From positions 6,313 to 70,312 of the forward strand of contig CAWBFZ010000010.1 of NCBI GenBank assembly GCA_963788175.1: 64,000 nucleotides of DNA, given 5' to 3'. The first letter of the stretch is position 1. Every line of letters begins with the position of its first letter. This stretch comes from Thermoanaerobaculia bacterium. GTDB lineage: Bacteria > Acidobacteriota > Thermoanaerobaculia > Multivoradales > JAGPDF01. Positions 762-52,186 of the stretch are shown in pieces. The notes under the pieces were generated by a model, which ran no database searches, was not told the origin of the DNA, and saw nothing but the letters and a program-made list of their open reading frames with translations. The position numbers and the translations under genes were made by a program.

Positions 762-886
762 GAGTCACCTCTCCTCGGGCAGAGCTCGCTTCCAGCAGCA
801 GTTTGCAAATCCTGCGCCGCCCCGCAAGGAGAGGCGTCCGGCAGAACCGGACGGGGCCAAGAGGTCGCGACCCGGTCCGCGGCCTG

Positions 887-892
887 TATAGT
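887..892 (+). promoter_or_regulatory. candidate -10 box TATAGT about 40 nt upstream of the first kinase start
   Basis: TATAGT is the only AT-rich hexamer in the 170-nt GC-rich leader upstream of ATG 932. No convincing -35 element was seen. Confidence 0.2.
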
Positions 893-931
893 CGGCCGTT
901 CCGTGACCCTGACGCCCGCGCCCGGCCCCCG

Positions 932-3640
932 ATGATCGGCCAACGCCTCGGCCCCTACGAGATCACCGCCAAGCTGGGCGAGGGCGGCATGGGTGAGGTC
1001 TATCGCGCCACCGACTCGCGCCTGAAGCGCGAGGTGGCGATCAAGGTTCTCCCCGCCGCCTTCACCGAGGACAGGGAGCGACTCTCGCGCTTCGAACGCG
1101 AAGCGCAGCTCCTCGCCCAGCTGCATCACCCCAACATTGCCTCGATCTTCGGCCTCGAGGAGAGCGGCGGCGTCAAGGCGCTCATCATGGAGCTCGTCGA
1201 CGGCCCAACCTTGGCCGAACGCCTCGAATCGGGGCCTCTTTCCTTTACTGAGAGCTTTTCCTTCGCGCTGCAGATCGCGCAGGCGCTCGAAGAGGCCCAC
1301 GAAAAGGGCATCGTCCACCGTGACCTCAAGCCCCAGAATGTAAAAGCTTCCAGTGAAGGAAAAGCCAAAGTCCTCGATTTCGGGTTGGCCAAGGCGATGG
1401 ACGCAACGCCTGGAGCCGCATCCGCGGCCGATCTCGCGCGCTCGCCGACGATCATGAACTCCCCCACCCTGACTGCGGCGCACGGGACGCAGTTGGGCGT
1501 GATCCTCGGCACCGCCGCCTACATGGCGCCGGAGCAGGCGCGCGGCGGCACGGTCGACAAGCGCGCCGACATCTGGGCCTTCGGCGTGGTCCTGTACGAA
1601 ATGCTCACCGGCCGCTCGCTGTTCGCCGGCCCGACGGTCTCCGACACCCTCGCCGGCGTCCTCAAGACGGCGATCGACTTCGCGGAGCTGCCCGCCGACA
1701 CGCCGCCGGCGATCCGCCGGCTCTTGCGCCGCTGCCTCGAGCGCAATCCGAAGAACCGCCTGCACGACATCGCTGATGCCCGCATCGTGCTGCAGGAGTC
1801 GATCGCGGGCACGGGCGAGCCGGAGGCAGCGCAAGAACGGACGGTCGGCGTGGGCTGGCGATCTCCGGCGCGTCTGGCGGCAGGAGCGGCGACCTTGCTT
1901 GCGGTGGGTGTCGCCGGCGGCTGGATATTCGGATCGCGCTCCGCCGAGTCGGGTGGCGGGGCGGTCGGTGCCTCCCGGGATCCCGTCCGATTCTCGATCC
2001 GGCCTCCCGCAGGCGTGGTCGAGGTGATGAACCCGCAGGTCTCCTCGGCTGGCGACCTCGTTCTCTATCAGGGCTGGAGGCGGGACGACTCGGGGCGGCT
2101 CTACAGCCATCGTCTCGCCGACGGGGTGTCAAGGGCGGTCGACGGGACAGAAGGGGGAGTCGATCCCTTTCTCTCGCCGGATGGCCGCTGGGTCGGCTAT
2201 CGCAAGGACAACGGACTCTTCAAGAGCCCGCTCGCCGGCGGCGATCGGCTGACGATCTGTCCGGACTGCCGTGTTGCTTCGGGCTCGGCGTGGCTCGACG
2301 ACGGTACCATCCTGTACAACAACGCCTGGCTCGGCGGCCTTTCGATCGTCTCCGCCGACGGCGGATCGCCGCGGGTCGTGACGCAGCCGGATGCAGCCGC
2401 CGGTGAGCGCGGTCATTGGTTCCCCAACCGACTTCCCGGCGGCCGGTTCGCGCTCTTCACCATCTTTCCCTCGCAGAGCGGCATCAACGACGCCTGGATC
2501 GCCGTGCTCGATCTCGGAACCGGCGCCTACAGGCGGCTCGTGCACGGCGCGGATGCGCACTTCCTGGCGCCGCGTCACCTGATCTTCTATCGCGGCGGTG
2601 CCTACCACGCGGTGGAGTTCGATCTCAGCTCGGGGACCGTCGTCGGAGAGCCAGCCAAGGTGGTCGATGACGCCACCGAGCACGACCCCTCTGGAGACAA
2701 CCGGCGGCCGCTCTTCGCCGGCGGAGGACTGCTCGTCTACCGGCCCGGCGCCCTCCACGATCTTTCCGAGCTCGCCTGGCTGAGGCGCGGCCGAGCACCG
2801 GAGCCGCTCCGCATCCCCGCGCGCCCCTGGGTCCAGCTCGCGCTGTCGCCTGACGGCAAAGAGCTTCTCGGCTCGGTTCTCGAAGGGGGAGCGTTCGCAC
2901 TGCGCCGCGTCGCCCTCGACAGCGGCAGCGAGGAGCGGCTGTCGCTTCAGGGCATGAACTGGAAGCCTCGTTGGCGCCCGGACGGCGCCGGCATCGTCTT
3001 CCGCACGATGCGCAAAGGCGACTACGATACCTACTGGCTGGACCTGGTGGCAGGCGGAGCAGCCCAACCAGTCCTCGAGAGCCCGTCCGACGAGACGCCG
3101 ATCGCCTGGACTCCGGACGGCAAGAATCTGCTCGCCGAAATCTCGCAGGCGGATGGTTCGTACCCGCTCTTGCTGCATCCGCTCGACGGCGGGAAAGATC
3201 GGATCGTGGTCGACCAGCCGTTCGATCCGGACGAAGCTGCCGTCTCACCCGACGGCAATTGGCTGGCCTTCGCTTCCAGCCATTCGGGGACGAAGGAGAC
3301 CTATGCGCAACCTCTCGACGGCAAAGGAGCTGCGCAGCGGGTTTCGCGGCGCGGCGGCGCCTCGCCGTCGTGGTCTACCGACGGGCGCTGGATCTACTAC
3401 GTCGCGGGAAAGAAAATTCTACGGGTCGCCGTGCGCGCGACCGGGCCTCGCCTCGACGTCGGTGAAGAGGAGACGATTGCCGAGGGAAACTTCGTCGCGA
3501 TTTCCCCGGCGTTCGCCGGTACGGAACAGGAGCGCTTCCTGGTGGCGCTGGGCCCTCCGGTCGAGCCCCCCGTTGAGTTGCGCGTGATCATGGGCTTTCA
3601 GCGCGAGATCGAAGTCAAGATGGCGCAGGAACACCGGTAG
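932..3640 (+). CDS. Receptor-type Ser/Thr protein kinase: N-terminal Hanks kinase, one TM helix, C-terminal TolB/PD40-like beta-propeller (paralog 1)
   Basis: Starts MIGQRLGPYEITAKLGEGGMGEVYRATD with the Gly-rich loop, VAIK, HRDLKPQN, DFG and APE motifs. The TM segment is LAAGAATLLAVGVAGGWIF. Repeated SPDG(R/K)W(I/L) PD40 motifs follow. The ATG at 932 is in frame inside the longer ORF 803..3640. Confidence 0.9.
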   Translation: MIGQRLGPYEITAKLGEGGMGEVYRATDSRLKREVAIKVLPAAFTEDRERLSRFEREAQLLAQLHHPNIASIFGLEESGGVKALIMELVDGPTLAERLESGPLSFTESFSFALQIAQALEEAHEKGIVHRDLKPQNVKASSEGKAKVLDFGLAKAMDATPGAASAADLARSPTIMNSPTLTAAHGTQLGVILGTAAYMAPEQARGGTVDKRADIWAFGVVLYEMLTGRSLFAGPTVSDTLAGVLKTAIDFAELPADTPPAIRRLLRRCLERNPKNRLHDIADARIVLQESIAGTGEPEAAQERTVGVGWRSPARLAAGAATLLAVGVAGGWIFGSRSAESGGGAVGASRDPVRFSIRPPAGVVEVMNPQVSSAGDLVLYQGWRRDDSGRLYSHRLADGVSRAVDGTEGGVDPFLSPDGRWVGYRKDNGLFKSPLAGGDRLTICPDCRVASGSAWLDDGTILYNNAWLGGLSIVSADGGSPRVVTQPDAAAGERGHWFPNRLPGGRFALFTIFPSQSGINDAWIAVLDLGTGAYRRLVHGADAHFLAPRHLIFYRGGAYHAVEFDLSSGTVVGEPAKVVDDATEHDPSGDNRRPLFAGGGLLVYRPGALHDLSELAWLRRGRAPEPLRIPARPWVQLALSPDGKELLGSVLEGGAFALRRVALDSGSEERLSLQGMNWKPRWRPDGAGIVFRTMRKGDYDTYWLDLVAGGAAQPVLESPSDETPIAWTPDGKNLLAEISQADGSYPLLLHPLDGGKDRIVVDQPFDPDEAAVSPDGNWLAFASSHSGTKETYAQPLDGKGAAQRVSRRGGASPSWSTDGRWIYYVAGKKILRVAVRATGPRLDVGEEETIAEGNFVAISPAFAGTEQERFLVALGPPVEPPVELRVIMGFQREIEVKMAQEHR

Positions 3641-3660
3641 ATGCGGCCAGGGGAACGGCC

Positions 3661-6417
3661 TTGATCGGCAGCCGCCTCGGCCCCTACGAGATCACCGCCA
3701 AGCTGGGCGAGGGCGGGATGGGCGAGGTCTACCAGGCGACCGACACCAAGCTCGAGCGCCAGGTAGCGATCAAAGTGCTGCCGGCGGCGTTCACCGAGGA
3801 CAAAGAGCGCCTGGCGAGATTCGAGCGCGAGGCGAAGCTCCTCGCCCAGTTGAATCACCCCAACATCGCGCAGATCTACGGCCTCGAGACCGGCGGCGCT
3901 ACCTACGCCCTCGTCATGGAGCTCGTCCCCGGCCCGACGCTCGCCGAGCGCCTTGAGCTGGGACCTCTTTCCCTTACCGAGAGCTTCTCTCTCGCGCTGC
4001 AGATCGCCCAGGCGCTCGAAGAGGCGCACGAGAAGGGGATCGTCCATCGCGACCTCAAGCCCCAGAATGTAAAGGCCCCCAGGGAAGGAAAGGCCAAGGT
4101 GCTCGACTTCGGCTTGGCGAAGGCGAGGGATTCCGCCGGCGCCGCCGCCGCCGCGGCCGACCTCGCACGCTCGCCGACGCTGATGCACTCGCCGACGCTG
4201 ACCGCGGTCCGCGGCACGGAACTCGGGGTGATCCTCGGCACCGCGGCCTACATGGCGCCAGAGCAGGCGAAGGGCAGGGCGGTCGACAAGCGGGCCGACA
4301 TCTGGGCGTTCGGCGTCGTGCTCTTCGAGATGTTGACCGGGCGCCAGCTCTTCGGCGGCGAGACCGCCTCGGAGACGATCGCCGAAGTTCTCAAGCAGGA
4401 GATCGACTTCACGGCGCTCCCGGCCGCGCTCCCAGCCGGTGTCGAACGGCTGCTGCGGCGCTGCCTCGAGCGCGATCCGCAGCGCCGCCTGCGCGACATC
4501 GGCGAGGCGCGCATCATTCTCGAGCAGGCGCTCTCTCCCGGAGAGAGCGCGGGCGCGACGGCGCCACCGGCTCGACCTGAAGCCGTTGCAGCCGGGCGGC
4601 GCGCGCTGCCGTGGGCCGTGGCCGCTGTGCTCGCCGCCGCGGTCGTCGTTCTGGCGATCGCCGGCAGGTCCCCGAAGAAGGCTCCCCCGCCGGCGACGAC
4701 CGTCCTCGCGATGCGCTTCCCTGCCGGCCTCGCGCTTCCGCTCGACGATCGCGGCCTCTATGGCCAGACCGGCCGGATCGCGATTTCGCGCGACGGCCGG
4801 CGCGTGGCCTTCGTCGCCGGGGCCGGCGGCGAGGCAAAGCTCTACCTGCGAAATCTCGAGAACGCGATGGTCGTACCGATCGCCGGCACCACCGGCGCGA
4901 GCAGCCCGTTTTTCTCGCCGGACGGACGCTGGATCGGCTACTTCGCGCCCGGCAAGCTGCGCAAGGTCGCGGTCGACGGCGGCAAGCCGATCGACCTCGC
5001 CGATGCCAGCCTCGACCGCGGCGGAGTCTGGTGCCCCGACGGCTCGATCGTCTTCCCGCCCAACGTGACCTCCGGTCTCTTCCGGCTCCTGCCCGGCGGC
5101 GGGCCACCGGTGGCGCTGACGACACTCGACGCTGCCCAGGGAGAACGCACGCATCGCTGGCCGGCAGTTCTACCGGGCGGCAGGGAGGTAGCCTTCACCA
5201 TCGGGCGCATCGGCCAGCCCGGAGACTACGAATCGGCGACGATCGACGCCGTCGACCTCGTATCGGGAAAGCGCCGACCGCTCTTCCGCGGCGCCAGCAT
5301 GGTGCGCTTCACCGCCTCCGGCCACGCTCTCCTGGCGCGGGAGGGTCAGGTGCTCGCTCTGCCGCTCGCCGGAGCTTCCGGCGCGAGCACCGAGGACGCC
5401 GTGCAGGTGCTCTCCGGGGTCAGCGGAATCCCGGCGAGCGGCGTGCTCTATTTCGACGTCGCCGAAAACGGCACCCTGGTTTACGCCGAGAGCGATCCGG
5501 GAGCCAGCCAGCTCGAGCTCGCATGGCTCGATCGCTCCGGCACTCTAGAGAGCCTCGGCCTGCCGCCGCGCGAGTACCAGGGACCGAGGATTTCGCCCGA
5601 CGGCAAGCGGATCGCCGTCACCATCGGCCCGAGCGGCGGGCGCTCCGGCGACGTCTGGATTCACGACCTGACGAGCCGCGCGCTCACCAAGCTCTCCTTC
5701 GAAGGCCGCAGCTGGACGCCGGTCTGGGGCCGCGACGGGAGCGACGTCACCTACGCCACGATCACGCCGACCGGAGAGGACCAGTTCCGCTCGCGTCCGG
5801 CCACCGGCGGCGACGAGCCGAAGACGGTCCTCGCCTTCGGGCAGGGCCTGGCGCGCCAGCCGGTCGCGTGGATGCCGGACGGTTCGCTCCTCGCCTGGGA
5901 AGACGCCGGTACCCCCACTGTCGGCAACGTCGTCTACTTCCCGCCCGGGGCACGCGAGCCGCTGTCGATCGCCAGAACGCCGGCGATCGAGACCCAGGCT
6001 TCCGCCTCCCCCGACGGCCGCTTCGTCGCCTACGCTCTCGACGCCAGCGGCGCCTCGGAAATCTACGTCCAACCGTTCCCGCCCACCGGCGCCAAGTGGC
6101 AGGTGGCGACCGGCGCTGCCATGCCGCTCTGGTCCCGCGACGGCAGGCAGCTCTATTTTCTCGCGGGCAGGAGCCTCATGGCGGCGCCGGTCACGACGAT
6201 CGGCGGCTTCAGCATCGGCGCGCCGCGCAAGCTCCTCGACATGCCGCCCGCGCTCGTTCTGCTGACCGACACGACGACCAACTTCGACGTCGCCGGCGAC
6301 GGCCGCTTCCTGGTGGTGCGCCAGACCTCGCAGGAGAACATGACCGGCCACCTCGTCGTCGCCCTCGACTGGTTCACGGCGCTGCGCAAGCTCGCACCGC
6401 TTCCGGAGGCGCGATGA
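3661..6417 (+). CDS. Ser/Thr kinase-TM-beta-propeller paralog 2 (TTG start)
   Basis: Starts (TTG)IGSRLGPYEITAKLGEGGMGEVYQATD and carries the full set of kinase motifs. The TM segment is LPWAVAAVLAAAVVVLAIAG, followed by PD40 repeats. The start lies 20 nt after paralog 1, preceded by AGGGGAA. Confidence 0.85.
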   Translation: MIGSRLGPYEITAKLGEGGMGEVYQATDTKLERQVAIKVLPAAFTEDKERLARFEREAKLLAQLNHPNIAQIYGLETGGATYALVMELVPGPTLAERLELGPLSLTESFSLALQIAQALEEAHEKGIVHRDLKPQNVKAPREGKAKVLDFGLAKARDSAGAAAAAADLARSPTLMHSPTLTAVRGTELGVILGTAAYMAPEQAKGRAVDKRADIWAFGVVLFEMLTGRQLFGGETASETIAEVLKQEIDFTALPAALPAGVERLLRRCLERDPQRRLRDIGEARIILEQALSPGESAGATAPPARPEAVAAGRRALPWAVAAVLAAAVVVLAIAGRSPKKAPPPATTVLAMRFPAGLALPLDDRGLYGQTGRIAISRDGRRVAFVAGAGGEAKLYLRNLENAMVVPIAGTTGASSPFFSPDGRWIGYFAPGKLRKVAVDGGKPIDLADASLDRGGVWCPDGSIVFPPNVTSGLFRLLPGGGPPVALTTLDAAQGERTHRWPAVLPGGREVAFTIGRIGQPGDYESATIDAVDLVSGKRRPLFRGASMVRFTASGHALLAREGQVLALPLAGASGASTEDAVQVLSGVSGIPASGVLYFDVAENGTLVYAESDPGASQLELAWLDRSGTLESLGLPPREYQGPRISPDGKRIAVTIGPSGGRSGDVWIHDLTSRALTKLSFEGRSWTPVWGRDGSDVTYATITPTGEDQFRSRPATGGDEPKTVLAFGQGLARQPVAWMPDGSLLAWEDAGTPTVGNVVYFPPGAREPLSIARTPAIETQASASPDGRFVAYALDASGASEIYVQPFPPTGAKWQVATGAAMPLWSRDGRQLYFLAGRSLMAAPVTTIGGFSIGAPRKLLDMPPALVLLTDTTTNFDVAGDGRFLVVRQTSQENMTGHLVVALDWFTALRKLAPLPEAR

Positions 6418-6504: not shown

Positions 6505-9264
6505 ATGATCGGCCAACGCCTCGGCCCCTACGAGGTCACCGCCAAGCTCGGCGAGGGCGGCATGGGAGAGGTGTATCGGGCTACCGACACCAAGCTCGAG
6601 CGCCAGGTTGCAATCAAGGTGCTGCCGGCGGCGTTCACCGAAGACAAGGAGCGCCTCGCGAGATTCGAGCGCGAAGCCAGACTCCTCGCCCAGCTCCACC
6701 ATCCCAACATCGCCTCGATCTTCGGCCTCGAGGAGAGCGGCGGAGTCAAGGCGCTCGTCATGGAGCTCGTCGACGGCCCAACCTTGGCCGAACGCCTCGA
6801 ATCGGGGCCTCTTTCCCTTACTGAAAGCCTCTCTTTCGCGCTGCAGATCGCGCAGGCGCTCGAAGAGGCCCACGAAAAGGGCATCGTCCACCGCGACCTC
6901 AAGCCCCAGAATGTAAAAGCTTCCAGTGAAGGAAAAGCCACGGTCCTCGATTTCGGGCTGGCCAAGGCGATGGATGCGACCCCCGGTTCCGCTTCCGCGG
7001 CGGATCTCGCGCGCTCGCCGACGTTGATGAACTCGCCCACCCTGACGGCGGTCCACGGAACCCAGCTCGGCATGATCCTCGGGACTGCGGCCTACATGGC
7101 GCCCGAGCAGGCGCGCGGCGCCGCGGTCGACAAGCGCGCCGACATCTGGGCCTTCGGCGTCATGCTCTACGAGATGCTCACCCGCGAGCGGCTCTTCGAG
7201 GGCGACAGCGTCGTCGACACGATTTCGGCGGTGATGCGCAAGCAGATCGATCTCACGGGTCTGCCGGCTGCGGCGTCGCCGCGCGTGCGCGAGTTGGTGC
7301 GGCGCTGTCTCGAGCGCGATCCGAAGCGACGCCTGCGCGATATCGGGGAAGCGCGGCTGCTGATCGAGCGCGAGCTCGCGGGCGAGCCAGGAGTCGGAGA
7401 GGGAGGAAGCGGAAGTAACGCCGACAGCGGCACGGGTGCGGCTCCTTCAGCTGCGAACACCACCCGTCAGCTTGCCCTCGCTGGCGTCATCGTCGGAGCC
7501 GTCTCGATCGGGCTCGTGGTCGGAAAATTCATCCTGTCGCCTCCGCCGGCCGCCCAGAACGCGCGATCGATCCGCGCCACGATTGCTCTCCCGGCCGGGC
7601 TCGAGCTCGACGGTGTCGGAGCACCGGAGATCGCCCTCTCACCGGACGGCTCGACGCTCGCCTTTCTGGCCCGGGGTGAAAGTGGGCCTCAGCATCTGTA
7701 TCTACGGCGGCTCGACGGCGACGAGGTGAAGCGGGTGCCGGGCAGCGAGACCGCCGAGGGCCCGTTCTTTTCCCCCGACGGCAAGTGGGTCGCCTTCGCC
7801 GTCGGCGTCTCGGGCCTGGGTGGAGGCATTCCGCGTGAGCTGCGCAAGCAGTCGCTCGAAACCGGGCTGACGCAGACGATCGCCACGATCGAGGACTACT
7901 TCGGCGGCGTCTGGCGGAACGATGGGACGATTCTCCTCGTCGAGGCTACCGACGGAACCCTCTCGTCCGTGCCGGCGAGCGGCGGCAAGCCTTCTCCTGC
8001 GGTCGAGAGCGTCCTCGACCGCGGCGAGCGGCGCGCGGTGGCGATCTTCTGGCCCGAGCTGTTGCCGGGTGGCCGGGCCATCGCCTTCGCCACGGACGAA
8101 AGGCCGGCCGGCGAACTGGCCGTACTCGATCTCGAGTCGAACGTCCTCAGCCGGCTCGGCGTGCATGGGATGTCGCCGCGCTACCTGCCGACCGGCCATC
8201 TCGCCTTTGGCGGTGAAAGCGGAACTCTCGAGGTCGTGCCGTTCGACGCCGCAGGGAGGCGGGTCCTCGGCGCGCCGGTGGCGATGCTCGGCGACGTCGC
8301 CCGGGCGCGCAATCGCTCGGCGACCTACGCCGTCTCCGCCAACGGCACGCTCGTCTACGCGACCGGCTATCTGCGCAACAGTCGCAGCGAACCGATGCGC
8401 GTGGTGCGAGCTTCGCGCGGCGGCGCCTTCGAGACGCTGGCGATCGAGCCCGATCTCTACGGCCGCGCTCTCGCAGTCGCGCCGGACGGCGGGCGAGTGG
8501 CCCTGGCGCGCGAAGATCGCGGCAGCTGGGTGGTCGACCTCGAGCGCGGGACGCGGACCAAAGTCGCCGGCGTGGAGTTGAGCGGCGCGATGAATGTCGC
8601 GTGGTCTCCCACCGGCGACCGGTTGGCCTGGGTTGCTGCGGCTCCCGAGGGGAACGCGGTCGCCCTCTTCGTTCAGCCGAGCGACGGGCGAGGGACGCCG
8701 CAGGTACTTGCGGTGCGCGACGACGACCTCACCGTCGCCGGCTGGATGCCGGACGGCCGCGAGCTGGTCTTCACGCGCTGGGGATCCTCCGCGACGATCG
8801 AGCGCATCGCTCTCGACGGCGAGAGCACCGTCGCCTGGAAGGACCCCGGCGCGCTCAGCGCCAGCGCCCTCTCGCCCGACGGACGATTCGTCGCACTCGA
8901 GTCGGACGCGGGCGAAGGCTACGAGCTCTACCTCTTTACCTTCGCCACAGGAGAGCGGACCCAGGTCACCGGCGCTGGCGGACGCGATCCGTTCTGGGCG
9001 AAAGATGGGCGGGAGCTCTTCTTTCGCCGGGGCGCCGGGATCTATTCCGTCGCGGTCTCGTCCGCCGCGGACGGTTCGCCCCGGATTGGCCGGGAGACGC
9101 GGCTGTTCGAATGGCCCGCCGCCTACCGGGTCGTCGCTGGTCGCGACGGCGTCTTCTTCGGGATCGAACCGGTCCCCGGCGCCGCGACGCAGCGCAGCCT
9201 CGAGCTGCGCACGGAGTGGTTCGCCGATGTGAAGCGGCTCGCCGGAGCGGGAAACAAGAATTGA
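6505..9264 (+). CDS. Ser/Thr kinase-TM-beta-propeller paralog 3
   Basis: Starts MIGQRLGPYEVTAKLGEGGMGEVYRATD. Kinase motifs are intact, the TM segment is LALAGVIVGAVSIGLVVG, and PD40 repeats follow. Confidence 0.9.
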   Translation: MIGQRLGPYEVTAKLGEGGMGEVYRATDTKLERQVAIKVLPAAFTEDKERLARFEREARLLAQLHHPNIASIFGLEESGGVKALVMELVDGPTLAERLESGPLSLTESLSFALQIAQALEEAHEKGIVHRDLKPQNVKASSEGKATVLDFGLAKAMDATPGSASAADLARSPTLMNSPTLTAVHGTQLGMILGTAAYMAPEQARGAAVDKRADIWAFGVMLYEMLTRERLFEGDSVVDTISAVMRKQIDLTGLPAAASPRVRELVRRCLERDPKRRLRDIGEARLLIERELAGEPGVGEGGSGSNADSGTGAAPSAANTTRQLALAGVIVGAVSIGLVVGKFILSPPPAAQNARSIRATIALPAGLELDGVGAPEIALSPDGSTLAFLARGESGPQHLYLRRLDGDEVKRVPGSETAEGPFFSPDGKWVAFAVGVSGLGGGIPRELRKQSLETGLTQTIATIEDYFGGVWRNDGTILLVEATDGTLSSVPASGGKPSPAVESVLDRGERRAVAIFWPELLPGGRAIAFATDERPAGELAVLDLESNVLSRLGVHGMSPRYLPTGHLAFGGESGTLEVVPFDAAGRRVLGAPVAMLGDVARARNRSATYAVSANGTLVYATGYLRNSRSEPMRVVRASRGGAFETLAIEPDLYGRALAVAPDGGRVALAREDRGSWVVDLERGTRTKVAGVELSGAMNVAWSPTGDRLAWVAAAPEGNAVALFVQPSDGRGTPQVLAVRDDDLTVAGWMPDGRELVFTRWGSSATIERIALDGESTVAWKDPGALSASALSPDGRFVALESDAGEGYELYLFTFATGERTQVTGAGGRDPFWAKDGRELFFRRGAGIYSVAVSSAADGSPRIGRETRLFEWPAAYRVVAGRDGVFFGIEPVPGAATQRSLELRTEWFADVKRLAGAGNKN

Positions 9265-9265
9265 G

Positions 9266-11975
9266 TTGGCCATGTCCTTAGGCGCGGGAAGTCGCCTCGG
9301 CCCCTACGAAATTACCGCCAAGCTGGGCGAGGGCGGCATGGGCGAGGTCTACCGCGCGACCGACTCGCGTCTCAAGCGCGAGGTGGCGATCAAGGTTCTG
9401 CCCGCAGCCTTCACTGCGGACAAGGAGCGTCTCGCCCGATTCGAGCGCGAAGCGCAACTGCTCGCGCAGCTGAACCACCCGAACATCGCTCAGATCTACG
9501 GCCTCGAGACCAGCGGCGCCACGCACGCCCTGGTCATGGAGCTCGTCCCCGGTCCGACGCTCGCCGAGCGCTTCGAATCCGGAGCTTTTTCCATTACCGA
9601 AAGCCTTTCTTTCGCCTTGCAGATCGCCCAGGCGCTCGAAGAGGCCCACGACAAGGGCATCGTCCACCGCGACCTCAAGCCCCAGAACATCAAGGCTTCC
9701 AGTGAAGGAAAAGCCAAGGTCCTCGATTTCGGGTTGGCCAAGGCGATGGACGCGACCGTCGGCGCCGCCTCGGCGGCCGATCTCGCGCGCTCGCCGACGC
9801 TGATGCATTCGCCGACTCTGACCGCCGTGCATGGGACGCAGCTGGGCATGATCCTGGGCACCGCGGCCTATATGGCGCCCGAACAGGCGCGGGGCGCTGC
9901 GGTCGACAAGCGGGCCGACATCTGGGCGTTCGGCGTGCTGCTCTACGAGATGCTCACCGGCGAGCGCGCTGTTCGAGGGCGACAGCGTCGTCGACACGCT
10001 GTCCGCCGTGATGCGCCAGGAGATCGATCTCGGACGCCTGCCCGCCGGCACGCCGGGCGCGATCCGGCTGCTGCTGCGCCGCTGCCTCGAGCGCAGCCCG
10101 AAGAACCGCCTGCACGACATCGCCGACGCCCGCATCGTCCTCGAGGAGCAGATCGCGGGCAAGGGCGACGAGGCGATCCCGGGCGTCGGCGTTCCCGCGG
10201 TAGACAAGGCCGGCCGGTCGCGCCTCGTCGAGCGGCTCGCCTTCGGCATCGGAGCGCTGGCGCTCGCCGGTCTCGCCTGGACTCTCGCTGCCCGCGGCGG
10301 GAGCAACGAGCCGCCGCGGCGCGCGGCGCGCTTCCACATCCTGCCGCCCGAGGAGGCCGAGTTCAACTCCACCGACGGACCGCTCGAGCTCTCGCCGGAC
10401 GGACAATCGCTGCTCTTCCGGCTCGAGAAGCCGGACGGCGAGCACGGCCTCGCCATCCGCCGCCTCGACTCGTTCGACATCCGCGAGCTGCCCGGAACGA
10501 CTCGCGCCTACGACGCCTTCTGGTCGGCCGACGGCCGCTCGATCGGTTTCTTCCGCGCCCAACTGGAGACCATTGACGCCGCCGGCCTGCAGGCGCCGCA
10601 GCAGCTCGCCGTCGTGCGCGACGGCCGGGGAGGAAGCTGGAACCGGAACGGCATCCTCCTCTTCGCTCCGGATCCGGCCGGTGCGATCTATCAGATCCCG
10701 GCGACCGGCGGCGCGCCGGTCGCAGTGACGGCAATCGACGCCGCGCTCGGCGAGACCGCCCACATGCGGCCGAGTTTCCTGCCCGACGGCAAGCACTTCA
10801 TCTACCTGATCAAGTCAGAGCGCGCCGAGAGCTCCGGCATCTTCGTCGGCGCGCTCGACGGCAAGCTCAAGAAACGTTTGCTGCCCAGCGAGACCGCTCC
10901 GCGCTTCGCTCCGCCCTCGTTCCTCCTGCTCTTCCAGAACGACCGCCTGGTCGCACGCCAGCTCGATCTCGAGCGGCTCGAAGTCACCGGCGAAGCGACC
11001 GCGCTGGCTGGCGGCGTCGAGTACACCTCGCGATTCGAGAGCCTGCCGGCCTCGGCGTCGCTCGACGGCAGGCTCGTCTACCACCAGCCCTCGACTGGTC
11101 AACTGCGTCAGACCGTGCACGCCGACCGCCTCGGCAAGCGACTCGCAACGCTCGGCGAACCGGGAGATTCGAACCTGGATCTCTCGCCTGACGGACGCCG
11201 ACTCGCGGTCGTCCGCTTCGATGTCGAACGCCGGCGGCAGTTCGTCTGGATTCACGATCTCGAACGCGACGTCCGCTTTCCGTTGAGCCCGGACAGTCCC
11301 GCCGGCGGACCGGTCTGGTCACCTGACAACCGGACGGTAGCCTACGCCGCCGAAACATCGACCGAGCCGCGCATCGCGACGCGTCCGGCGGACGGCGGCC
11401 CCGAACGCGTCGTCTGGCGTGACCCGTTCATCATGGAGCCGGTCGACTGGTCGCCCGACGGTCGTTGGATCCTCACCGAAGTTGGCTCGGCGGCCGGCAG
11501 GACCGATCTGACGCTGGTCCCGGCCGACGGCTCGGGCAGCGTGGTGCCGTTCGCCAACCAGCGCTTCACCGAGGACAGCGGCCGATTCTCGCCCGACGGC
11601 AGATTCATCGCCTACGTCTCGGACGAGGCGGGCCGCCCGGAGATCTACGTCGAGCCGGTGCCGCGCACCGGTGCCAAGTGGCTGGTCTCGGGCCGTGGCG
11701 GCAACGCCCCGCGCTGGAGCGCCGGCGGCAGGGAACTGCTCTACGTCGAGCCCGGCGCACGCGAGACCGACTCGACTCTGACCTCGGTCCGCGTTGAGCC
11801 GCAGGGCGACGGGCTCGCCTTCAGCCAGGCCACGGCGGTCGCACCGATCCCGTCGCTCGATATCGAGCTTGCCGCCGGCGGCCGCGAGCTTCTGCTGACC
11901 GTTCCGGTCGTCCAGGGCGTCACGCGCCCGCCGATCCTGATCGAGAACTGGACGGCGCTCCTGCCGGCGAAGTGA
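9266..11975 (+). pseudogene. Ser/Thr kinase-TM-beta-propeller paralog 4, frame broken by a +1 indel near 9963-9970
   Basis: The kinase frame 9266.. reads ...EMLTGERAVRGRQRRR (nonsense). The correct continuation ERLFEGDSVVDTLSAVMRQEIDL is in the frame of ORF 10008..11975. Nucleotide alignment to paralog 3 (gagcggctcttcgag versus gagcgcgctgttcgag here) shows one extra base. Confidence 0.75.
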
Positions 11976-12847: not shown

Positions 12848-15487
12848 TCAGCGCTCGAGCAGGCGATTCCAGTTGAGGAGCACCGTGGTCGGCGGATTGG
12901 CCGCGTCACCCTGCGGCGCGACGGTGAGGAAGTGCTGGCCGTCGGGTGCGACGCGATAGCGGTTGCGCAGGGAGAGCGGCGCGAGCGTCACGGCGAAGAG
13001 AGGCTCGGGGACGTTGGCGTCGAAGCTGGCGCCGGTCGTGACGGCGACGCGCATCATCTTGTTCTCGGGCGAAAGATAGAACAGCTCCTTGCCATCCGGA
13101 CCCCAGGCCGGATCCTCGCCGCCGCGGGTCGAGATCTGCCAGCGGCCCGATGCGCCCCCGAAGCCGACGACGTAGACCTCGGGGACTCCGGATTCGGTCG
13201 ACTCGAACAGCAGCCATCGCCCGTCGGGCGAGACGGTCCCCCGGATGTTGACGAACTCCGAGCCCACGACCACCTTCGCCTGCCCGGGCTGACCGATCGG
13301 AACGGTCCAGATCTGCCAGGGCTTGTCGGGAAACTGGCGCTGAAAGACCAGGCTCTTGCCGTCGGGAGTCAAGGACAGCGGCGCCGCGCGACCCGTCGTG
13401 GCGTCGAAGAGCAGGCGCTCTTCGCCCGTGCGATCGAGCGACCGCTCGACGATCCGCGACGGCTTGCCCTCTTCGCGGCGTTCGAACACTACGCGCCGGC
13501 TGTCGCGCGAGAAGAGTGGCACGACCTCGCCCCCCCTGTCGAAGGTGAAGCGCGACGAGACACCGCGCTTCAAGTCGCGCACCCATAGGTCGGCGTCGGC
13601 GCCGCCGCTTACCTGGTAGGCGAGCCAGCGACCGTCCGGCGAGAGGTCGGCGTTGCCGAAGTTGCCCGCCTCGGCGGCAACCTCGGTGCGGTTTCCCTTG
13701 CGATCGAGCCAGACGTACTGCGACTGGCCGGCCCGCCCGGCGCGGTAAGCAAGGACTCCGCTGCGCGACGCCGAGAAGTCGGCCAGCCCGACGCTGTCGA
13801 TGCCGAGCCCTTCGGCGACCGGCACGGGGTCGCCGCTCAACCTGGCGCTCGCGGCGTCGAATCTCTGCGCCACCAGCGTCGCGTCGCGGACGAATAGCAG
13901 GTAGCCAGGCGGCGCATACTCGACGCGCGACAGGCCGCCGATGACGTCGCGCACGTTCCGGCCGTCGAGGTCGGCGATCCGGATCGCCTCCTTGCCCTCG
14001 TTGATGTTGACGAAGAGGAAGCGTTTGCCGCCCGGGAGGAACTGCGGCCATCCCGCCGTGTTGTTCTCGTCGCCGACGAGGTCGCTGGCGACGCCGCCGG
14101 CGGCGGAGACCTTGCGGATCGGATCGCTGTTGGCACCGTCGAACAGGATCGTGCCGTCTTCGCCCCAGCTGCCGTCCGCGCCGGTCGGCGCGTCGCAGAT
14201 GGACTGCGGCGGGCCGCCGGTGACCTCCACTTTCTTGAGCTTGCCACCGGCGAAGAATCCGAGATGGCGGCTGTCGGGCGACCAGAACGGCCGCGTCGTC
14301 CCTTCGGTGCCGGGCAGCGGCTGCGCCTCGAGCGCGTTCATCGCCCGCACCCAGATCCGGGTCGTGCCCTGGTCGTCGGTGCCGTTGAAGGCGAGGTAGC
14401 GGCCGTCGGGAGAGAGCTTCGGCGAGCCGACGATCGGCAGCTTCGGCGGCTGCGGCACTTCGAACCGGATGAGGTCGGGGACGACCGGCGCGCGCCGGGA
14501 GTAGCCGACAGCAAAGAGAATCGCGGCGGCGCTCGCGCCCGCCGCGAGGCCCCATGCCAGCCGCTCGCGGTTCTTTCGGTGGTGCGCCACCGGCGCCGGG
14601 AGCCCGATCTGCGAGCCGCCCTCGGCAATCCAGGCCAGCTGCAGCCGCACGTCGTGCGCCGTATGCCAGCGGTCTTTCGGGTTCTTGGCGAGACAGGTCG
14701 AGATCACCCGGTCGAGCGCCGGCGGCGAAAGCGGGGCGATCGACGACACCGGCGCCGGCGCGGCGCTCATGATCGCCCCGATGAGGCTCGCCTGGCTCGC
14801 ACCCGAGAACGCCTTCTGGCCCGTGGCCATCTCGTAGAGCACGCAGCCGAGCGCGAAGAGGTCGCTCCGCGCGTCGGTCTCCCGGCCTTCGAGCTGCTCG
14901 GGGGCCATGTACTGGAACGTCCCCATGATCATGCCCGCCGAAGTCAGAGGCGCCGAGTTCTGCTGCGTCGGCAGCTGGCCGAGCTGGGTCACGCCCGACT
15001 GCGGCGCCGTCGCGTGCAGCTTGGCGAGCCCGAAGTCGAGGAGCTTCACGCCGCGGTCGGTGAGAAAGACGTTGCCGGGCTTCAAGTCCCGGTGGATGAT
15101 GCCCGCGCCGTGTGCCTTCTCGAGCGCATCGGCGATCTGGATGCCGAGGCGGAGCACCTCTTCGATCGGCAACGGCCCTTTGGCGATCCGGTCGGCGAGC
15201 GACTCCCCTTCGAGCAGCTCCATGACCAGATAGTCGATCTCCCCTTCCCGGCCGACATCGTGGAGCGTGCAGATGTTCGGGTGCTGCAGCGAAGAGATCG
15301 CCCGCGCCTCGCGTTCGAAACGCTGGCGCACGTCGTCGGACGCCGCGAGGTGGTCCGAGAGCACCTTCAGCGCGACCGATCGGTCGAGCCGCGTATCTTT
15401 CGCGCGGTAGACCTCGCCCATGCCGCCGGCGCCCAGGGGGCCGATCACTTCGTACGGTCCGAGGCGGGCTCCGGAGGTGAGTGTCAT
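12848..15487 (-). CDS. Divergent Ser/Thr kinase-TM-TolB/PD40 beta-propeller protein on the opposite strand
   Basis: MTLTSGARLGPYEVIGPLGAGGMGEVYRAKD with HRDLKPGNVFL and DFGLAKL motifs. The TM segment is LAWGLAAGASAAAILFAVGY. PD40-like motifs PFWSPDSRHLGF, LSPDGRWLAYQ and VSPDGRWLLFE follow. The C-terminal tail is TVLLNWNRLLER. Confidence 0.85.
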   Translation of the reverse strand: MTLTSGARLGPYEVIGPLGAGGMGEVYRAKDTRLDRSVALKVLSDHLAASDDVRQRFEREARAISSLQHPNICTLHDVGREGEIDYLVMELLEGESLADRIAKGPLPIEEVLRLGIQIADALEKAHGAGIIHRDLKPGNVFLTDRGVKLLDFGLAKLHATAPQSGVTQLGQLPTQQNSAPLTSAGMIMGTFQYMAPEQLEGRETDARSDLFALGCVLYEMATGQKAFSGASQASLIGAIMSAAPAPVSSIAPLSPPALDRVISTCLAKNPKDRWHTAHDVRLQLAWIAEGGSQIGLPAPVAHHRKNRERLAWGLAAGASAAAILFAVGYSRRAPVVPDLIRFEVPQPPKLPIVGSPKLSPDGRYLAFNGTDDQGTTRIWVRAMNALEAQPLPGTEGTTRPFWSPDSRHLGFFAGGKLKKVEVTGGPPQSICDAPTGADGSWGEDGTILFDGANSDPIRKVSAAGGVASDLVGDENNTAGWPQFLPGGKRFLFVNINEGKEAIRIADLDGRNVRDVIGGLSRVEYAPPGYLLFVRDATLVAQRFDAASARLSGDPVPVAEGLGIDSVGLADFSASRSGVLAYRAGRAGQSQYVWLDRKGNRTEVAAEAGNFGNADLSPDGRWLAYQVSGGADADLWVRDLKRGVSSRFTFDRGGEVVPLFSRDSRRVVFERREEGKPSRIVERSLDRTGEERLLFDATTGRAAPLSLTPDGKSLVFQRQFPDKPWQIWTVPIGQPGQAKVVVGSEFVNIRGTVSPDGRWLLFESTESGVPEVYVVGFGGASGRWQISTRGGEDPAWGPDGKELFYLSPENKMMRVAVTTGASFDANVPEPLFAVTLAPLSLRNRYRVAPDGQHFLTVAPQGDAANPPTTVLLNWNRLLER

Positions 15488-15558: not shown

Positions 15559-18288
15559 TTGATCGGCATGCGAGTCGGCCCCTACGAGGTCACCGCCAAG
15601 CTCGGCGAAGGCGGCATGGGCGAGGTCTACCGCGCCACCGACACCAAGCTCAAGCGCGAAGTCGCGATCAAGGTTCTGCCCGCCGCCTTCACCGAGGACA
15701 AGGAGCGCCTCGCGCGTTTCGAGCGCGAGGCGCAGCTCCTGGCGCAGCTCCACCACCCGAACATCGCCTCGATCTTCGGGCTCGAGGAGAGCGCCGGCAC
15801 CAAGGCTCTCGTCATGGAGCTCGTGGAAGGCCCGACGCTCGCCGAACGCCTCGAAGCGGGAGCTCTTTCTCTTACCGAGAGCTTTTCAGCCGCGCTGCAG
15901 ATCGCGCAGGCGCTCGAGGAGGCCCACGAAAAGGGGATCGTCCACCGCGATCTCAAGCCCCAGAACATCAAGGCTTCCAGTGAAGGAAAGATCAAAGTCC
16001 TCGATTTCGGGTTGGCCAAGGCGATGGACGCGACTCCCGGTTCCGCATCTGCGGCCGATCTCGCGCGCTCGCCGACGATCATGAACTCGCCGACCCTCAC
16101 CGCGGTCCACGGCACGCAACTGGGCATGATCCTCGGCACGGCGGCCTACATGGCCCCCGAACAGGCGCGCGGCGTCGCGGTCGACAGGCGCGCCGACATC
16201 TGGGCCTTCGGCGTGGTCTGCTTCGAGATGCTGACCGGCAGGCGGCTCTTCGAGGGCGAAACGGTCTCGGACACGCTGGCGGCAGTGCTCCGCCAGGAGA
16301 TCGACTGGAGCGCCTTGCCGCCGTCGACGCCGGCGTCGATCCGCACGCTCCTCCGCCGCTGTCTCGAGCGCAATCCGAAGAACCGGCTGCACGACATCGC
16401 CGACGCGCGCATCGTGATCGACGAGGTCTCGTCGGGGAGAGCGGAGGCTCCTGCTGCCGGCGCGTCGCCGGCGGCCTTAGCGGCTGCGCCGCGCCGTCGG
16501 CGAGTGTGGGCCGTCGCTGCGGCGGCGCTGGCGATCGGGGCGGCGGCCGGATGGCTCCTGCACGGCTCTCCCGCTCCACCTGCGCCGGCGTCGCGCTGGA
16601 CGCTCGCGTTGCCGGAGGGCTATGCGCTCTCGACGGTCGACTCGCCGCAGATCGCCCTATCGCGAGACGGCGGCTTGCAGGCGATTGTCGTCGTCGGCGC
16701 GAGCCGCGTCGCGCAGATCCTCGTCCGGAGGAGCGATTCTTTCGAGCCCCAGGTCCTCTCGGGGACCGAAGGAGCCTCGTCGCCGTTCTTCTCGCCCGAC
16801 GCGAGCTGGATCGGATTCTTCCGCGACGACGCCCTGATGAAGATCCCGGTCGGCGGCGGGCCGGCGATCCGCCTCGCAGCCATCAAGAACCAGGAGCGGG
16901 GCGCCACCTGGAGCCTTGACGGCTGGATCTACTTCTCGCCCGGATTCGGCGAGCCGCTGTCACGCGTCGGCCAGGGGGGCGGCGCGGTCGAGCCGGTGAC
17001 CCACCTCGACACGAAGCGGAGCGAGCGCACGCACCGCTGGCCGGAGGCGCTCCCGGGCGGCGAAGCCGTCATCTTCACCTGCGACACGGCGGCTTCGACC
17101 GAGTACTACGACGACGCGAGGATCGAAGCGGTCCGGCCCGCCACCGGCGAACGCAAAGTCCTGCTCGAGGGTGCGAGCCAGGCACGCTTCGCGCCCGGGG
17201 GCTACCTCGTCTTCGCCCGCGGTGGCTCTCTTTTCGCCGTCGCGTTCGACACCCGAAAGCTCGAGGTCAGGGGGGCGCCGGTCGAAGTCGTCCGGAGTGT
17301 CGCGACCAACGTCGGTTCGGGTGCGGCGCAGTTCGCCATCGCGCAGAGCGGCGCGGCGCTCTGGGCGCCGGGCGGACTCTCGGCGGCATATCGGGTCGTG
17401 TCGGTCGATCGCCAGGGAAATGAACGGCCGATCGAAGTCCCCCAGGCGCCCTACAACGAGCTCGCGCTGTCGCCCGACGGCTCGCGGCTCGCCCTCGTCG
17501 GCGGACCCGGCGGGATCTCCGACCTCTGGGTGGCGGACCTCTCCCGCGGCTCGCTGACGCGGCTCACTTCCGGCGATTTCGTGCACATGCCGACCTGGAC
17601 GCCGGACGGCTCCAGGCTCGCCTACGCGGTCGTCCGACAGGGATCGGCGGAGGAGCGGACGCGAGTCGACTGGCGGCCGGCCGACGGCAGCCGGCAGGCC
17701 GAGACGCTGGTGGCGGAGGGGCCCGGTCAGTATCCCAGCTCCTTCACTCCGGACGGCAGCACCCTGATCTACGACGCGTTCGATGACGCCCAGGGCAGCT
17801 CTTCCAACATCTGGGCGCTGCCGCTCGGGGGTGAACGCCATGCTCGCGCGCTCACCGCCGGCCCGTTCGCGAAGAACTCTGGCGCAGTCTCTCCAGATGG
17901 CCGATGGCTCGCGTATGTGTCGGGCGAGAGCGGCGGCAACAATGTCTATGTGCGTCCCTTCCCGGAGGGCGACGGGAGGTGGCAGATCTCCACTCCCGTA
18001 GGCGAAGAGCCGCGCTGGGGGGTCGACGGAAGGGAGCTCTTCTTCCGGGCCAACTCGGTGCTCGAGCGGGTGTCGATCGACACCCGCCCGGGCTTCCATG
18101 CCGGCCGTCAGGAACCGCTGCTCGACCGCGTCGCCTCCGGGGGCGAGACCCAGTCCTATTCGCTATCGCCGGACGGTTCCCGGATCTTCACCCTCCGCAC
18201 CGCGGCAGGCAGCGGCGCGAGGACGACCTTCGACCTCGACCTCGGCTTCGCCCGTCGGCTCGACGCGCCGCTGAGCGACCGGAGATAA
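15559..18288 (+). CDS. Ser/Thr kinase-TM-beta-propeller paralog 5 (TTG 15559 or ATG 15568 start)
   Basis: (L)IGMRVGPYEVTAKLGEGGMGEVYRATD with kinase motifs. The TM segment is VWAVAAAALAIGAAAGWLL, followed by PD40 repeats. It diverges from the minus-strand kinase across a 71-bp intergenic region. Confidence 0.85.
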   Translation: MIGMRVGPYEVTAKLGEGGMGEVYRATDTKLKREVAIKVLPAAFTEDKERLARFEREAQLLAQLHHPNIASIFGLEESAGTKALVMELVEGPTLAERLEAGALSLTESFSAALQIAQALEEAHEKGIVHRDLKPQNIKASSEGKIKVLDFGLAKAMDATPGSASAADLARSPTIMNSPTLTAVHGTQLGMILGTAAYMAPEQARGVAVDRRADIWAFGVVCFEMLTGRRLFEGETVSDTLAAVLRQEIDWSALPPSTPASIRTLLRRCLERNPKNRLHDIADARIVIDEVSSGRAEAPAAGASPAALAAAPRRRRVWAVAAAALAIGAAAGWLLHGSPAPPAPASRWTLALPEGYALSTVDSPQIALSRDGGLQAIVVVGASRVAQILVRRSDSFEPQVLSGTEGASSPFFSPDASWIGFFRDDALMKIPVGGGPAIRLAAIKNQERGATWSLDGWIYFSPGFGEPLSRVGQGGGAVEPVTHLDTKRSERTHRWPEALPGGEAVIFTCDTAASTEYYDDARIEAVRPATGERKVLLEGASQARFAPGGYLVFARGGSLFAVAFDTRKLEVRGAPVEVVRSVATNVGSGAAQFAIAQSGAALWAPGGLSAAYRVVSVDRQGNERPIEVPQAPYNELALSPDGSRLALVGGPGGISDLWVADLSRGSLTRLTSGDFVHMPTWTPDGSRLAYAVVRQGSAEERTRVDWRPADGSRQAETLVAEGPGQYPSSFTPDGSTLIYDAFDDAQGSSSNIWALPLGGERHARALTAGPFAKNSGAVSPDGRWLAYVSGESGGNNVYVRPFPEGDGRWQISTPVGEEPRWGVDGRELFFRANSVLERVSIDTRPGFHAGRQEPLLDRVASGGETQSYSLSPDGSRIFTLRTAAGSGARTTFDLDLGFARRLDAPLSDRR

Positions 18289-22848: not shown

Positions 22849-25572
<2,724 letters not shown>

Positions 25573-25576
<4 letters not shown>

Positions 25577-43371: not shown

Positions 43372-43373
43372 GC

Positions 43374-52168: not shown

Positions 52169-52186
52169 GGGAGGTCCTGTTCTCGG

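Follow-up and report, generated by a model that had tools for sequence, protein, structure and literature searches.

Why should genes of high GC content keep, at the same place in copy after copy, two short stretches that are rich in A and T? The question is raised by a 64,000-nucleotide (nt) stretch of DNA from a Thermoanaerobaculia bacterium (contig CAWBFZ010000010.1, positions 6,313 to 70,312 of the forward strand; hereafter the window), which has a GC content of about 69-70% and of which the first 33 kb contain ten Hanks-type Ser/Thr kinase genes fused to PD40/TolB-like propeller regions. Eight of these genes (the core paralogs K1 to K8, all on the + strand) carry the two AT-rich islands, and the other two (K9 and K10) are divergent kinases. 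An earlier sequence-only reading had pointed out the islands; what is new here is their mutual complementarity. The two islands are codon-by-codon reverse complements, in which codon i faces codon 247 − i (numbered as in K1), and the best-supported explanation, at a probability of about 0.42, is that the coding sequence (CDS) contains one long-range stem, conserved and A/U-rich, of which they are the arms in the mRNA. The reference gene and its islands are:

932-3640, + strand: K1, with a Pkinase domain (residues 9-278) and a PD40/TolB-like β-propeller; reference for the codon numbering
1232-1264, + strand: K1 island 1, codons 101-111 (GPLSFTESFSF), pyrimidine-rich, GC 0.48, located by exact string match
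1334-1390, + strand: K1 island 2, codons 135-153 (QNVKASSEGKAKVLDFGLA), GC 0.47, located by exact string match

The two low-GC islands first noticed in the eight core paralogs proved to be real by alignment, by GC content and by GC content at third codon positions (GC3). The K1 islands compare with a GC of 0.67 for the K1 kinase domain, and the part of island 2 that is both AT-rich and purine-rich is its core, codons 135-146. Island 2 lies exactly where it had been placed, whereas island 1 begins and ends one base before the 1233-1265 originally given; the positions proposed for the other paralogs hold to within about 10 nt. Copies with up to 8 mismatches are found at 3961, 6805, 9581, 15859, 19603 and 23150 for island 1, and at 6907, 9683, 15961 and 23252 for island 2. 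Island 1 of K8 and island 2 of K2, K6 and K8 are more diverged, yet visible in the alignment, and in all eight genes the islands occupy the same alignment columns. In K1, K3, K5, K6 and K8 the lowest GC3 of the whole gene of ~900 codons (windows of 11 codons) is at codons ~93-102 or ~133-139, where it drops to 0.18-0.36 although the gene means are 0.82-0.87. Across the eight paralogs, the fraction of A/T at the third position reaches 0.88-1.00 at codons 99, 102, 103, 105, 110, 139, 141, 142 and 143, the domain mean being 0.14. The divergent kinases at 29991 (K9) and 12848(-) (K10) use ordinary G/C-ending codons at the island positions, as had been said of them. The further statement that the same nucleotides recur in all paralogs holds for specific codons and for the AT-rich state, but the islands are not frozen: they vary among paralogs (AAA/AAG, GTA/ATC, GAT/GAC, TTT/CTT), K5 and K8 deviate at the 3' end of island 1, and island 2 of K2 is partly lost (GCC CCC AGG). 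In the protein, island 1 encodes the αD-αE loop and the start of αE, as judged by aligning K1 with Stk1 and by what is known of the kinase fold, and the core of island 2 encodes β7, the following turn and β8, directly ahead of the DFG motif.

To follow the islands beyond the window, homologs were collected by protein pattern, leaving codon choice unconstrained, which gave 79 loci from species-representative genomes and at least 79 from metagenomes. A first codon alignment held 111 kinase domains, and adding the metagenome loci raised the number to 244. The genes with islands group in one clade, recognizable by the peptide markers (G/x)xLSxxESLS and KASxEGK; it has 96 members, of which 68 (on about 45 contigs) have AT-rich islands. 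The comparison set consists of 109 related kinases that have neither the SLSxxESLS nor the KASxEGK motif, and these are without islands.

In the i/247 − i register, codon position 1 faces position 3, position 2 faces 2, and position 3 faces 1. The K1 pairs are S104 TCC with G143 GGA, F105 TTT with E142 GAA, T106 ACT with S141 AGT, and S108 AGC with A139 GCT; L/F109 further pairs with K138, and L103 CTT with K144 AAR, while E107 GAA faces S140 TCC with a fixed A·C mismatch in the middle. K1 has a perfect core of 11 nt (GCTTTTCCTTC / GAAGGAAAAGC). The consensus is ..Y CUU UCC nnn nnn GAA AGC CUU U.. for island 1 and ..A AAR GCU UCC nnn GAA GGR AAR G.. for island 2, and the ~82 nt between the arms encode αE and the HRDLKPQN catalytic loop. 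When all 31 ungapped registers were scanned over the 68 island-bearing members, this one gave 66% pairing over 30 positions (38 ± 9% across registers), and the third-position pairs alone gave the same value (66%, against 36 ± 9%). The same register is at background (39%) in the 109 homologs without islands. For the helix of 22 pairs, 79.8% of the cells in the 68-sequence alignment are paired, and sliding one partner by 1-3 columns lowers this to 38.7-58.3%. The arms lie as follows in the eight paralogs, those of K2 to K8 being placed by alignment.

1237-1259, + strand: K1 5' arm, codon 102 position 3 to codon 110 position 1, defined by the minimum free energy (MFE) and centroid folds, the register scan and the pair counts
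1342-1364, + strand: K1 3' arm, codon 137 position 3 to codon 145 position 1, antiparallel with 1237-1259
3966-3988, + strand: K2 5' arm
4071-4093, + strand: K2 3' arm, partly eroded (GCC CCC AGG)
6810-6832, + strand: K3 5' arm
6915-6937, + strand: K3 3' arm, with 15.5 inter-island pairs predicted in the ensemble
9586-9608, + strand: K4 5' arm, in a gene frameshifted near 10000
9691-9713, + strand: K4 3' arm, 17.8 predicted inter-island pairs (null 3.1)
15864-15886, + strand: K5 5' arm, local hairpin predicted in place of the inter-island helix
15969-15991, + strand: K5 3' arm
19608-19630, + strand: K6 5' arm
19713-19735, + strand: K6 3' arm, predicted duplex of −29.5 kcal/mol (recodes −10.9 ± 2.9)
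23155-23177, + strand: K7 5' arm, in a gene frameshifted near 22945
23260-23282, + strand: K7 3' arm, 17.5 predicted inter-island pairs (null 4.5)
25878-25900, + strand: K8 5' arm
25983-26005, + strand: K8 3' arm, 18.1 predicted inter-island pairs (null 4.1)

The choice of base at individual third positions (written as codon.position) matches the base that each of them faces. T at 139.3 pairs with A108.1, and GCT is about 40 times commoner there than the equally rare GCA. Positions 104.3 and 140.3, whose partners are G143.1 and G107.1, hold C, sometimes T and never G; TCC at S104 and S140 is not a rare codon (18-20%), and TCG is never used there. A purine stands at 143.3 opposite U/C at 104.1, where GGT, the rarest Gly codon, and GGY in general are almost never used. 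A pyrimidine stands at 102.3 opposite G145.1, in the form of CCT, GCT or AGT, and the commonest Pro codon, CCG, is nearly absent. Ser110, the third base of which is unpaired in this register, provides an internal control: all four of TCC, TCT, TCA and TCG are used. Exchange among rare codons is found at L103, L105, V137 and I141, and a single codon choice at A139 (GCT), E142 (GAA) and G143 (GGR). Since the odd third positions that are kept complement constrained first and second positions of the other arm, selection appears to act on the bases themselves and not only on codon rarity.

The islands and their codons are maintained in other genomes. In the alignment of 111 domains, A/T at third positions peaks at both islands (0.46-0.78) in homologs with at least 69% identity, and stays at baseline in those with 55-69% identity. 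A set of 73 sequences (49 loci, including 5 AT-rich genes from outside the clade), which was used for the GC3 and ensemble figures, has a GC3 of 0.41 inside the islands, compared with 0.84 for the remaining domain. Codon usage in the first 42 clade members is equally uneven. At the leucines, CTT accounts for 65% (L103) and 67% (L109) against a background of 2%; at the serines, TCC for 89% (S104) and 92% (S140) against 18%, and AGC for 81% (S108) against 22%. GAA is used at 85% for E107 and at 100% for E142 (all 38 members with Glu at this position), against 25%. The remaining preferences are GTA at V137 (64%, background 2%), GCT at A139 (86%, background 7%) and GGA at G143 (50%, background 9%), where most of the remainder is GGG; the background usage of AAA is 13%. 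These preferences persist in the enlarged set. In a column-by-column check of the 42 members, codon identity between genomes is near chance at most columns elsewhere, which indicates that there has been time enough to randomise synonymous sites. The difference in third-position identity among island-bearing homologs is modest (0.66 in the islands, 0.60 in the rest of the domain), and what is conserved is thus a disfavoured AT-rich state together with a set of specific codons, not full invariance. Two explanations put forward with the sequence-only reading, a recent spread of the segment from a lower-GC donor and inheritance by recent duplication only, are refuted by this conservation in homologs from other genomes.

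Folded as RNA, K1 codons 90-158 (1199-1405) are predicted to form a long hairpin of −85.3 kcal/mol, with z = −3.5 against dinucleotide shuffles; the fold that had been suggested as a check thus joins the two islands in one stem, which the MFE and centroid structures share. To separate base choice from composition, we compared the arms with synonymous recodes having the same A/T content at third positions. The arm duplex has a predicted energy of −30.6 kcal/mol in K1 (recodes −13.2 ± 3.6 kcal/mol), with nearly the same value in K6 (see above) and in a homologous gene from another locus, L003 (−30.1 against −12.8 ± 3.3 kcal/mol); that of K2 is no better than the recoding null (p = 0.11-0.19). 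Over the 73 sequences, the ensemble contains on average 8.2 inter-island pairs, and recodes that preserve the A/T class contain 3.8; island bases are paired more than in this null in 60 of the 73. The MFE of the region is below that of the same recodes in 85% of the sequences, with a mean z of only −1.3. The predicted pairing depends therefore on the actual synonymous codons, because it is lost in recodes that keep the amino acids and the number or class of A/T third positions. The predicted outcome is an inter-island helix in 35 of the 73 sequences, local hairpins in 23 and neither in 15.

The K1 hairpin extends outwards (CCUUGGCC / GGCCAAGG and neighbours), and we considered this extension as part of the conserved element. 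We rejected it, because its paired cells come from amino-acid-constrained positions and its synonymous pair, 94.3-153.3, is random (GC 11, CG 10, other 21); the extension is specific to K1 and K3.

Covariation was examined in the 68 sequences over the 22 pairs. Cells with double changes number 76, compared with 10-34 when one partner is slid and 52.5 ± 4.5 when the sequences are shuffled (0 of 500 shuffles reach 76), and the covariation score is 0.191 (0.067-0.125 when slid). The middle bases of codons 106 and 141 covary (A-U 30, C-G 30, other 7), and a rough reconstruction by parsimony, made on a neighbour-joining tree, suggests that several lineages replaced a C·U intermediate at 106.2/141.2 by C-G or returned to A-U. 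Region-wide scans of column pairs for covariation and mutual information were set aside, being dominated by wobble variation and subclade-marker columns.

Several observations weigh against a stem. RNAalifold does not predict it from 42 sequences, and a scan of positions 1-33000 returned no match to an Rfam family, apart from a sub-threshold CcsR1 match elsewhere. In 36 sister pairs there is no excess of compensatory double changes (8, against 3-7 in shifted registers matched for codon phase), and single changes that make or break a pair outnumber those that preserve one (141 against 61). The strongest pair, 106.2-141.2, largely follows the main subclade split, and its mutual information (0.45) is matched by unrelated subclade-marker columns (0.50). 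In the kinase fold the αD-αE region and the β7-β8 turn are spatially close, as in the docking groove of mitogen-activated protein kinases, and the covariation of codons 106 and 141 may arise at the protein level because the two residues may be neighbours in space. Counts across sequences also overstate the number of independent events, since the sequences are related and the paralogs exchange segments. In the subclade with GSLSIDESLS and KASIEGK the inter-island stem is not predicted although the same rare codons are kept; local hairpins are predicted there, one per island (GGAAGY-CUUUC...GAAAG-CCUUUC and CUUCC...GGAAG), and in one member, L018, the region is no more stable than shuffles (z = −0.08). 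AT-rich codons that weaken pairs are favoured, such as AAA at K138 opposite C109.1, ATA at I141, CAA at Q135 and TTA at L103, and in 96% of the sequences G/C-ending codons would make the region more stable, by about 10 kcal/mol. Because AT-rich codons are kept even at the cost of pairs, AT-richness seems to be favoured for its own sake, besides complementarity. The strand is ambiguous as well: pairing is slightly stronger between the antisense arms (−25.0 kcal/mol, sense arms −20.3), and the antisense fold of K1 has z = −3.1. In favour of a sense RNA, over DNA or antisense RNA, is the abundance of U·G cells where third positions are free (31 at 102.3 and another 31 at 105.3).

The complementarity, which is restricted to island-bearing genes, persists across many genomes and depends on the actual synonymous codons, could be that of an imperfect A/U-rich stem of about 23-25 nt, in which the pyrimidine-rich island 1 would lie antiparallel to the purine-rich island 2. 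In this phase, third positions that are free in one arm could adapt to first positions that the amino acids constrain in the other, and particular non-optimal codons would be kept for this reason. Two further points are inferred: the sense mRNA would be the active form, and selection would act on the stem itself. Such a stem may tie the fate of the mRNA, or the rate of elongation, to ribosome traffic: active translation would hold the arms apart, and a message free of ribosomes would fold them into a weak double-stranded segment, which could be recognised by a double-strand-specific nuclease such as RNase III, by analogy, or could slow the next ribosome. The AT-richness would leave one helix meltable within a GC-rich, tightly folded message.

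The case falls among known kinds of synonymous constraint and requires no new category. Structures embedded in coding sequences show up as synonymous-constraint elements, and the present islands resemble them in that synonymous freedom is lowered by the pairing of two coding segments in the phase 1-3/2-2/3-1; they differ in having an A/U-rich, mismatch-laden helix in a 70% GC genome, weak compensatory evolution and a place in a large tandem family of paralogs instead of a single gene. RNase III processes long-range stems, among them rRNA precursor stems and autoregulatory stems of mRNAs. These share with the putative stem arms of about 20-25 nt, a long loop and an imperfect duplex, a likeness that would be one of function only, and unlike them the present arms lie inside an open reading frame (ORF). 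FourU-type RNA thermometers likewise combine a U-tract (here CUUUUCC/CUUUCC) with purines resembling a Shine-Dalgarno (SD) sequence (here GAAGGA/GGAAAG) in a weak, meltable helix; unlike in these, no start codon follows the purine tract at usable spacing, so that a helix would have nothing to block there. A real stem would mean that these kinase genes contain, in the part that encodes the catalytic core, an RNA element acting in cis. Its conservation would span a class of uncultured Acidobacteriota, and every gene of the large tandem sensor-kinase arrays would have received a copy, which would give the paralogs a shared post-transcriptional handle. Protein motifs (SLSxxESLS, KASxEGK) and mRNA structure would then clearly have been shaped together. 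Islands of low GC in GC-rich genes need not be read only as isolated rare-codon clusters but also as arms that pair, which offers a simple search route to further elements of this kind.

The main rival, which we judge about half as probable as the stem, is that the islands are conserved rare-codon clusters, the slow codons of which pause the ribosome twice and so guide co-translational folding of the kinase, the complementarity being incidental. The first pause would come after β1-β3 and αC have emerged from the tunnel, and the second after the whole N-terminal lobe; island 2 lies ~35-45 codons past the end of this lobe, in agreement with the known length of the tunnel. Conserved rare-codon clusters, most of which lie within domains, are described as conserving rarity rather than codon identity (Chaney et al. 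2017, PMC5438181). The islands resemble them as clusters of non-optimal codons at homologous within-domain positions conserved across species: they are the lowest-GC3 windows of their genes, rarity is conserved at the same positions across genomes, rare codons interchange (L103 CTT/TTA/CTA, I141 ATA/ATT, V/I137 GTA/ATA, K138/K144 AAA), and AT-rich choices that weaken pairing are common. They differ from the published clusters in that many sites keep codon identity, TCC is not rare, and the two clusters are mutually reverse-complementary. Pausing does not explain why this non-rare TCC reaches ~90% at S104 and S140 when the codon of S110 varies freely, why GCT exceeds the equally rare GCA ~40 times, or why GGA/GGG are taken over the rarer GGT. 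It leaves equally without explanation a complementarity in one register that is limited to island-bearing genes and the loss of predicted pairing in recodes that preserve the A/T class, and the 109 related kinases of the same fold do without such clusters. The stem and the rare-codon pause are compatible and not mutually exclusive. If the pause is the true reading, the family is a well-defined, multiply replicated test case for position-specific pausing in the kinase fold.

It is less probable again that both islands contain a recognition site (core AAGC(C)TT(T)CC, then GAARG), to which a protein or trans-acting RNA would bind on the mRNA, or which would act in DNA as an inverted repeat, and that the complementarity is a consequence of this near-palindromic motif. 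The core does occur in two reading frames, GAA AGC CTT TCC in island 1 and AAA GCT TCC in island 2, specific bases are conserved with little compensatory change, and both strands fold equally well. Within the window, the motifs RAAGCYTTYC and AAAGCTTCC are confined to the kinases, and the 1.1 Mb of related loci have them at the corresponding kinase positions and nowhere else. A binding site of general use in DNA or RNA was rejected on this ground, and no trans partner or regulon is visible. The complementarity also reaches past the core, through the subclade-specific codons 105-106 and 141-142, and the frequent U·G cells at 102.3 and 105.3 are difficult to reconcile with a DNA duplex.

Slightly less probable than the recognition site is selection for a weak and accessible A/U-rich patch, serving endonuclease entry or the loading of Rho or another protein, with the stem irrelevant. 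It is in line with the lower stability of the region relative to G/C-ending recodes, with AT-richness being favoured even where it costs pairs, and with the pyrimidine-rich, G-poor character of island 1. An accessible patch is not expected to be more paired than recodes of the same A/T class, as is found in the 60 of 73 sequences mentioned above, and it leaves the preference for specific bases and the single register of complementarity unexplained.

That the islands have no function, and are an ancestral low-GC insertion or a by-product of gene conversion that has yet to ameliorate, is highly improbable. The paralogs do exchange short segments all along the domain, and the island-bearing genes are one clade with peptide motifs of its own; the near-chance codon identity at most other columns and the step in GC3 from 0.84 outside to 0.41 inside speak against a relic, and the island-bearing genes are not recent horizontal copies with synonymous divergence near 0 outside the islands. 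A gene-conversion or recombination hotspot, which had also been suggested, is not supported, given mosaicism that spans the entire kinase domain. Along the kinase domains of K1-K8 (932-26442), each gene changes its nearest paralog every ~30-50 codons, and the identity to that paralog is often 96-100%; for K1 the succession along the domain is K3, K7, K5/K8, K3, K6, K3 and K7. Mean pairwise identity is 82-85% in island 1, 85-88% in island 2 and 85-90% in the segment between them. Because switching happens everywhere and the islands are no more homogenised than their flanks, they are not a special hotspot. To judge from these sequences, pervasive short-tract conversion appears to keep the kinase domains alike while the propeller regions diverge. 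Identity among paralogs drops to 58-68% at codons ~225-265 and rises again at 266-285.

The arms sit in a register that would preserve the frame on inversion, for which reason we also considered them as the inverted repeats of an intragenic inverton, which is the least probable reading of all. None of 248 scoreable assembled copies is inverted, and none of the 12 large window ORFs scanned has a Pfam match to a recombinase family (4 of these are without any Pfam match). Inverted repeats do flank a short intragenic segment, in the form of imperfect arms of ~23 nt. A ~96-nt inversion (codons 108-139) would replace αE and the HRDLKPQN loop by an open antisense-frame peptide (SFYILGLEVTVDDALFVGLFERLRDLQREGKA in K1) and would bring a stop in K5 and K8; in silico, 4 of 6 paralogs tested stay open and 2 of 6 gain a stop. 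For intragenic invertons (Chanin et al., PMC10028968), a thiC repeat of 11 positions, 6 of them mutated, is described, and short repeats thus seem to be enough for inversion. The present arrangement shares with these invertons inverted repeats within a gene around a short segment, and its register would keep the frame after inversion; it differs from them in that the arms are imperfect and all 248 copies are forward. If the arms did invert, members of the sensor-kinase array could toggle reversibly between active kinase and pseudokinase or truncated states.

Among the functions initially listed for an embedded nucleic-acid element, the general idea has gained from the conserved rare codons, the specific bases and the complementarity in one register, but its form as an internal SD-like GAAGGA is not supported. 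Island 2 does contain AAGGA or AAGGG. GAG would be expected to pair with the anti-SD sequence at least as well as GAA, the GAA at codon 142 is invariant in the members with Glu, and an internal translation start was rejected because most members have no ATG, GTG or TTG at usable spacing after the tract. No sigma-70-like internal promoter was found in 800-4200. A consensus scan returned a weak terminator-like hairpin with a T-rich run at 1221-1245 (+), the run ending in K1 island 1, and mirror-image hairpins at 4074-4107 (-), the run ending in K2 island 2; in other subclades the hairpins themselves show no obvious conservation. The -1-frame stops of the kinase domain come almost solely from the islands (TGA at codon 106/107 in 78% of the sequences, TGA/TAG at 141/142 in 48%), and homologs without islands have 0.68 scattered -1-frame stops per 150 codons. 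The island stops are probably a by-product of NNT GAA, and in K1 they are located at 1249-1251 and 1354-1356.

Around the DFG motif there is a second kind of synonymous constraint, in which common codons are near-fixed across the genomes of the clade: GTC at V128 (96%), CTC at L148 (95%) and GCG at A155 (98%), with backgrounds of 49-57%. In K1 these codons are at 1313-1315, 1373-1375 and 1394-1396, and CTC at L148 is also kept in homologs without islands. The β7 strand reads N-V/I-K-A/V/L (K1 codons 137-139, 1340-1348), in homologs without islands as well (NVKVT, NVKLT), and its Lys sits at the usual place of a hydrophobic catalytic-spine residue (Leu173 in PKA).

K1 matches Pkinase (3.2e-48) and PD40 (2e-13) in Pfam and its translation contains HRDLKPQN and DFG, which identifies it as a Hanks-type kinase with a PD40 propeller; Stk1, PknA and PknB are the nearest solved structures. 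The kinase domains of the other core paralogs are 77-86% identical to that of K1 at the protein level, and the C-terminal regions are strongly divergent. The other genes of the array are:

3661-6417, + strand: K2, core paralog
6505-9264, + strand: K3, core paralog
9281-11975, + strand: K4, core paralog, frameshifted
12848-15487, − strand: K10, divergent kinase
15562-18288, + strand: K5, core paralog
19303-22023, + strand: K6, core paralog
22849-25576, + strand: K7, core paralog, frameshifted
25573-28311, + strand: K8, core paralog
29991-32660, + strand: K9, divergent kinase

The closest public relatives are metagenome-assembled genomes (MAGs) of Thermoanaerobaculia and other Acidobacteriota, several of them with the same tandem layout. 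Kinase-propeller tandem arrays with a spacing of ~2.7 kb are present in many other Acidobacteriota MAGs (loci L002, L008, L012, L014, L016-L018, L022-L025, L027, L030, L034, L035, L038, L044-L046, L048 and others), and because of this recurrence the array architecture is a lineage trait and not a quirk of one genome. The two frameshifts lie inside the kinase domain, in K4 at 9990-10010 with one surplus C in GAGCGCGCTGTTC, and in K7 at 22940-22950 with one surplus A in CTGAAGACGCGAG. The frames beyond them are otherwise intact, and the genes are either recent pseudogenes or carry indel errors of the assembly. The CcsR1 match mentioned above lies in the K5 CDS at 16735-16807 (+), with 24.2 bits against a gathering threshold of 65.3 (E = 0.063), and is probably due to chance. 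Downstream of the kinase array, adjoining genes for isocitrate lyase and malate synthase (glyoxylate shunt) occupy 49901-54106 (-), and nearby are genes for an FG-GAP/TPR protein of 1664 amino acids (43301-48295) and for a DUF11 repeat protein (56991-60719).

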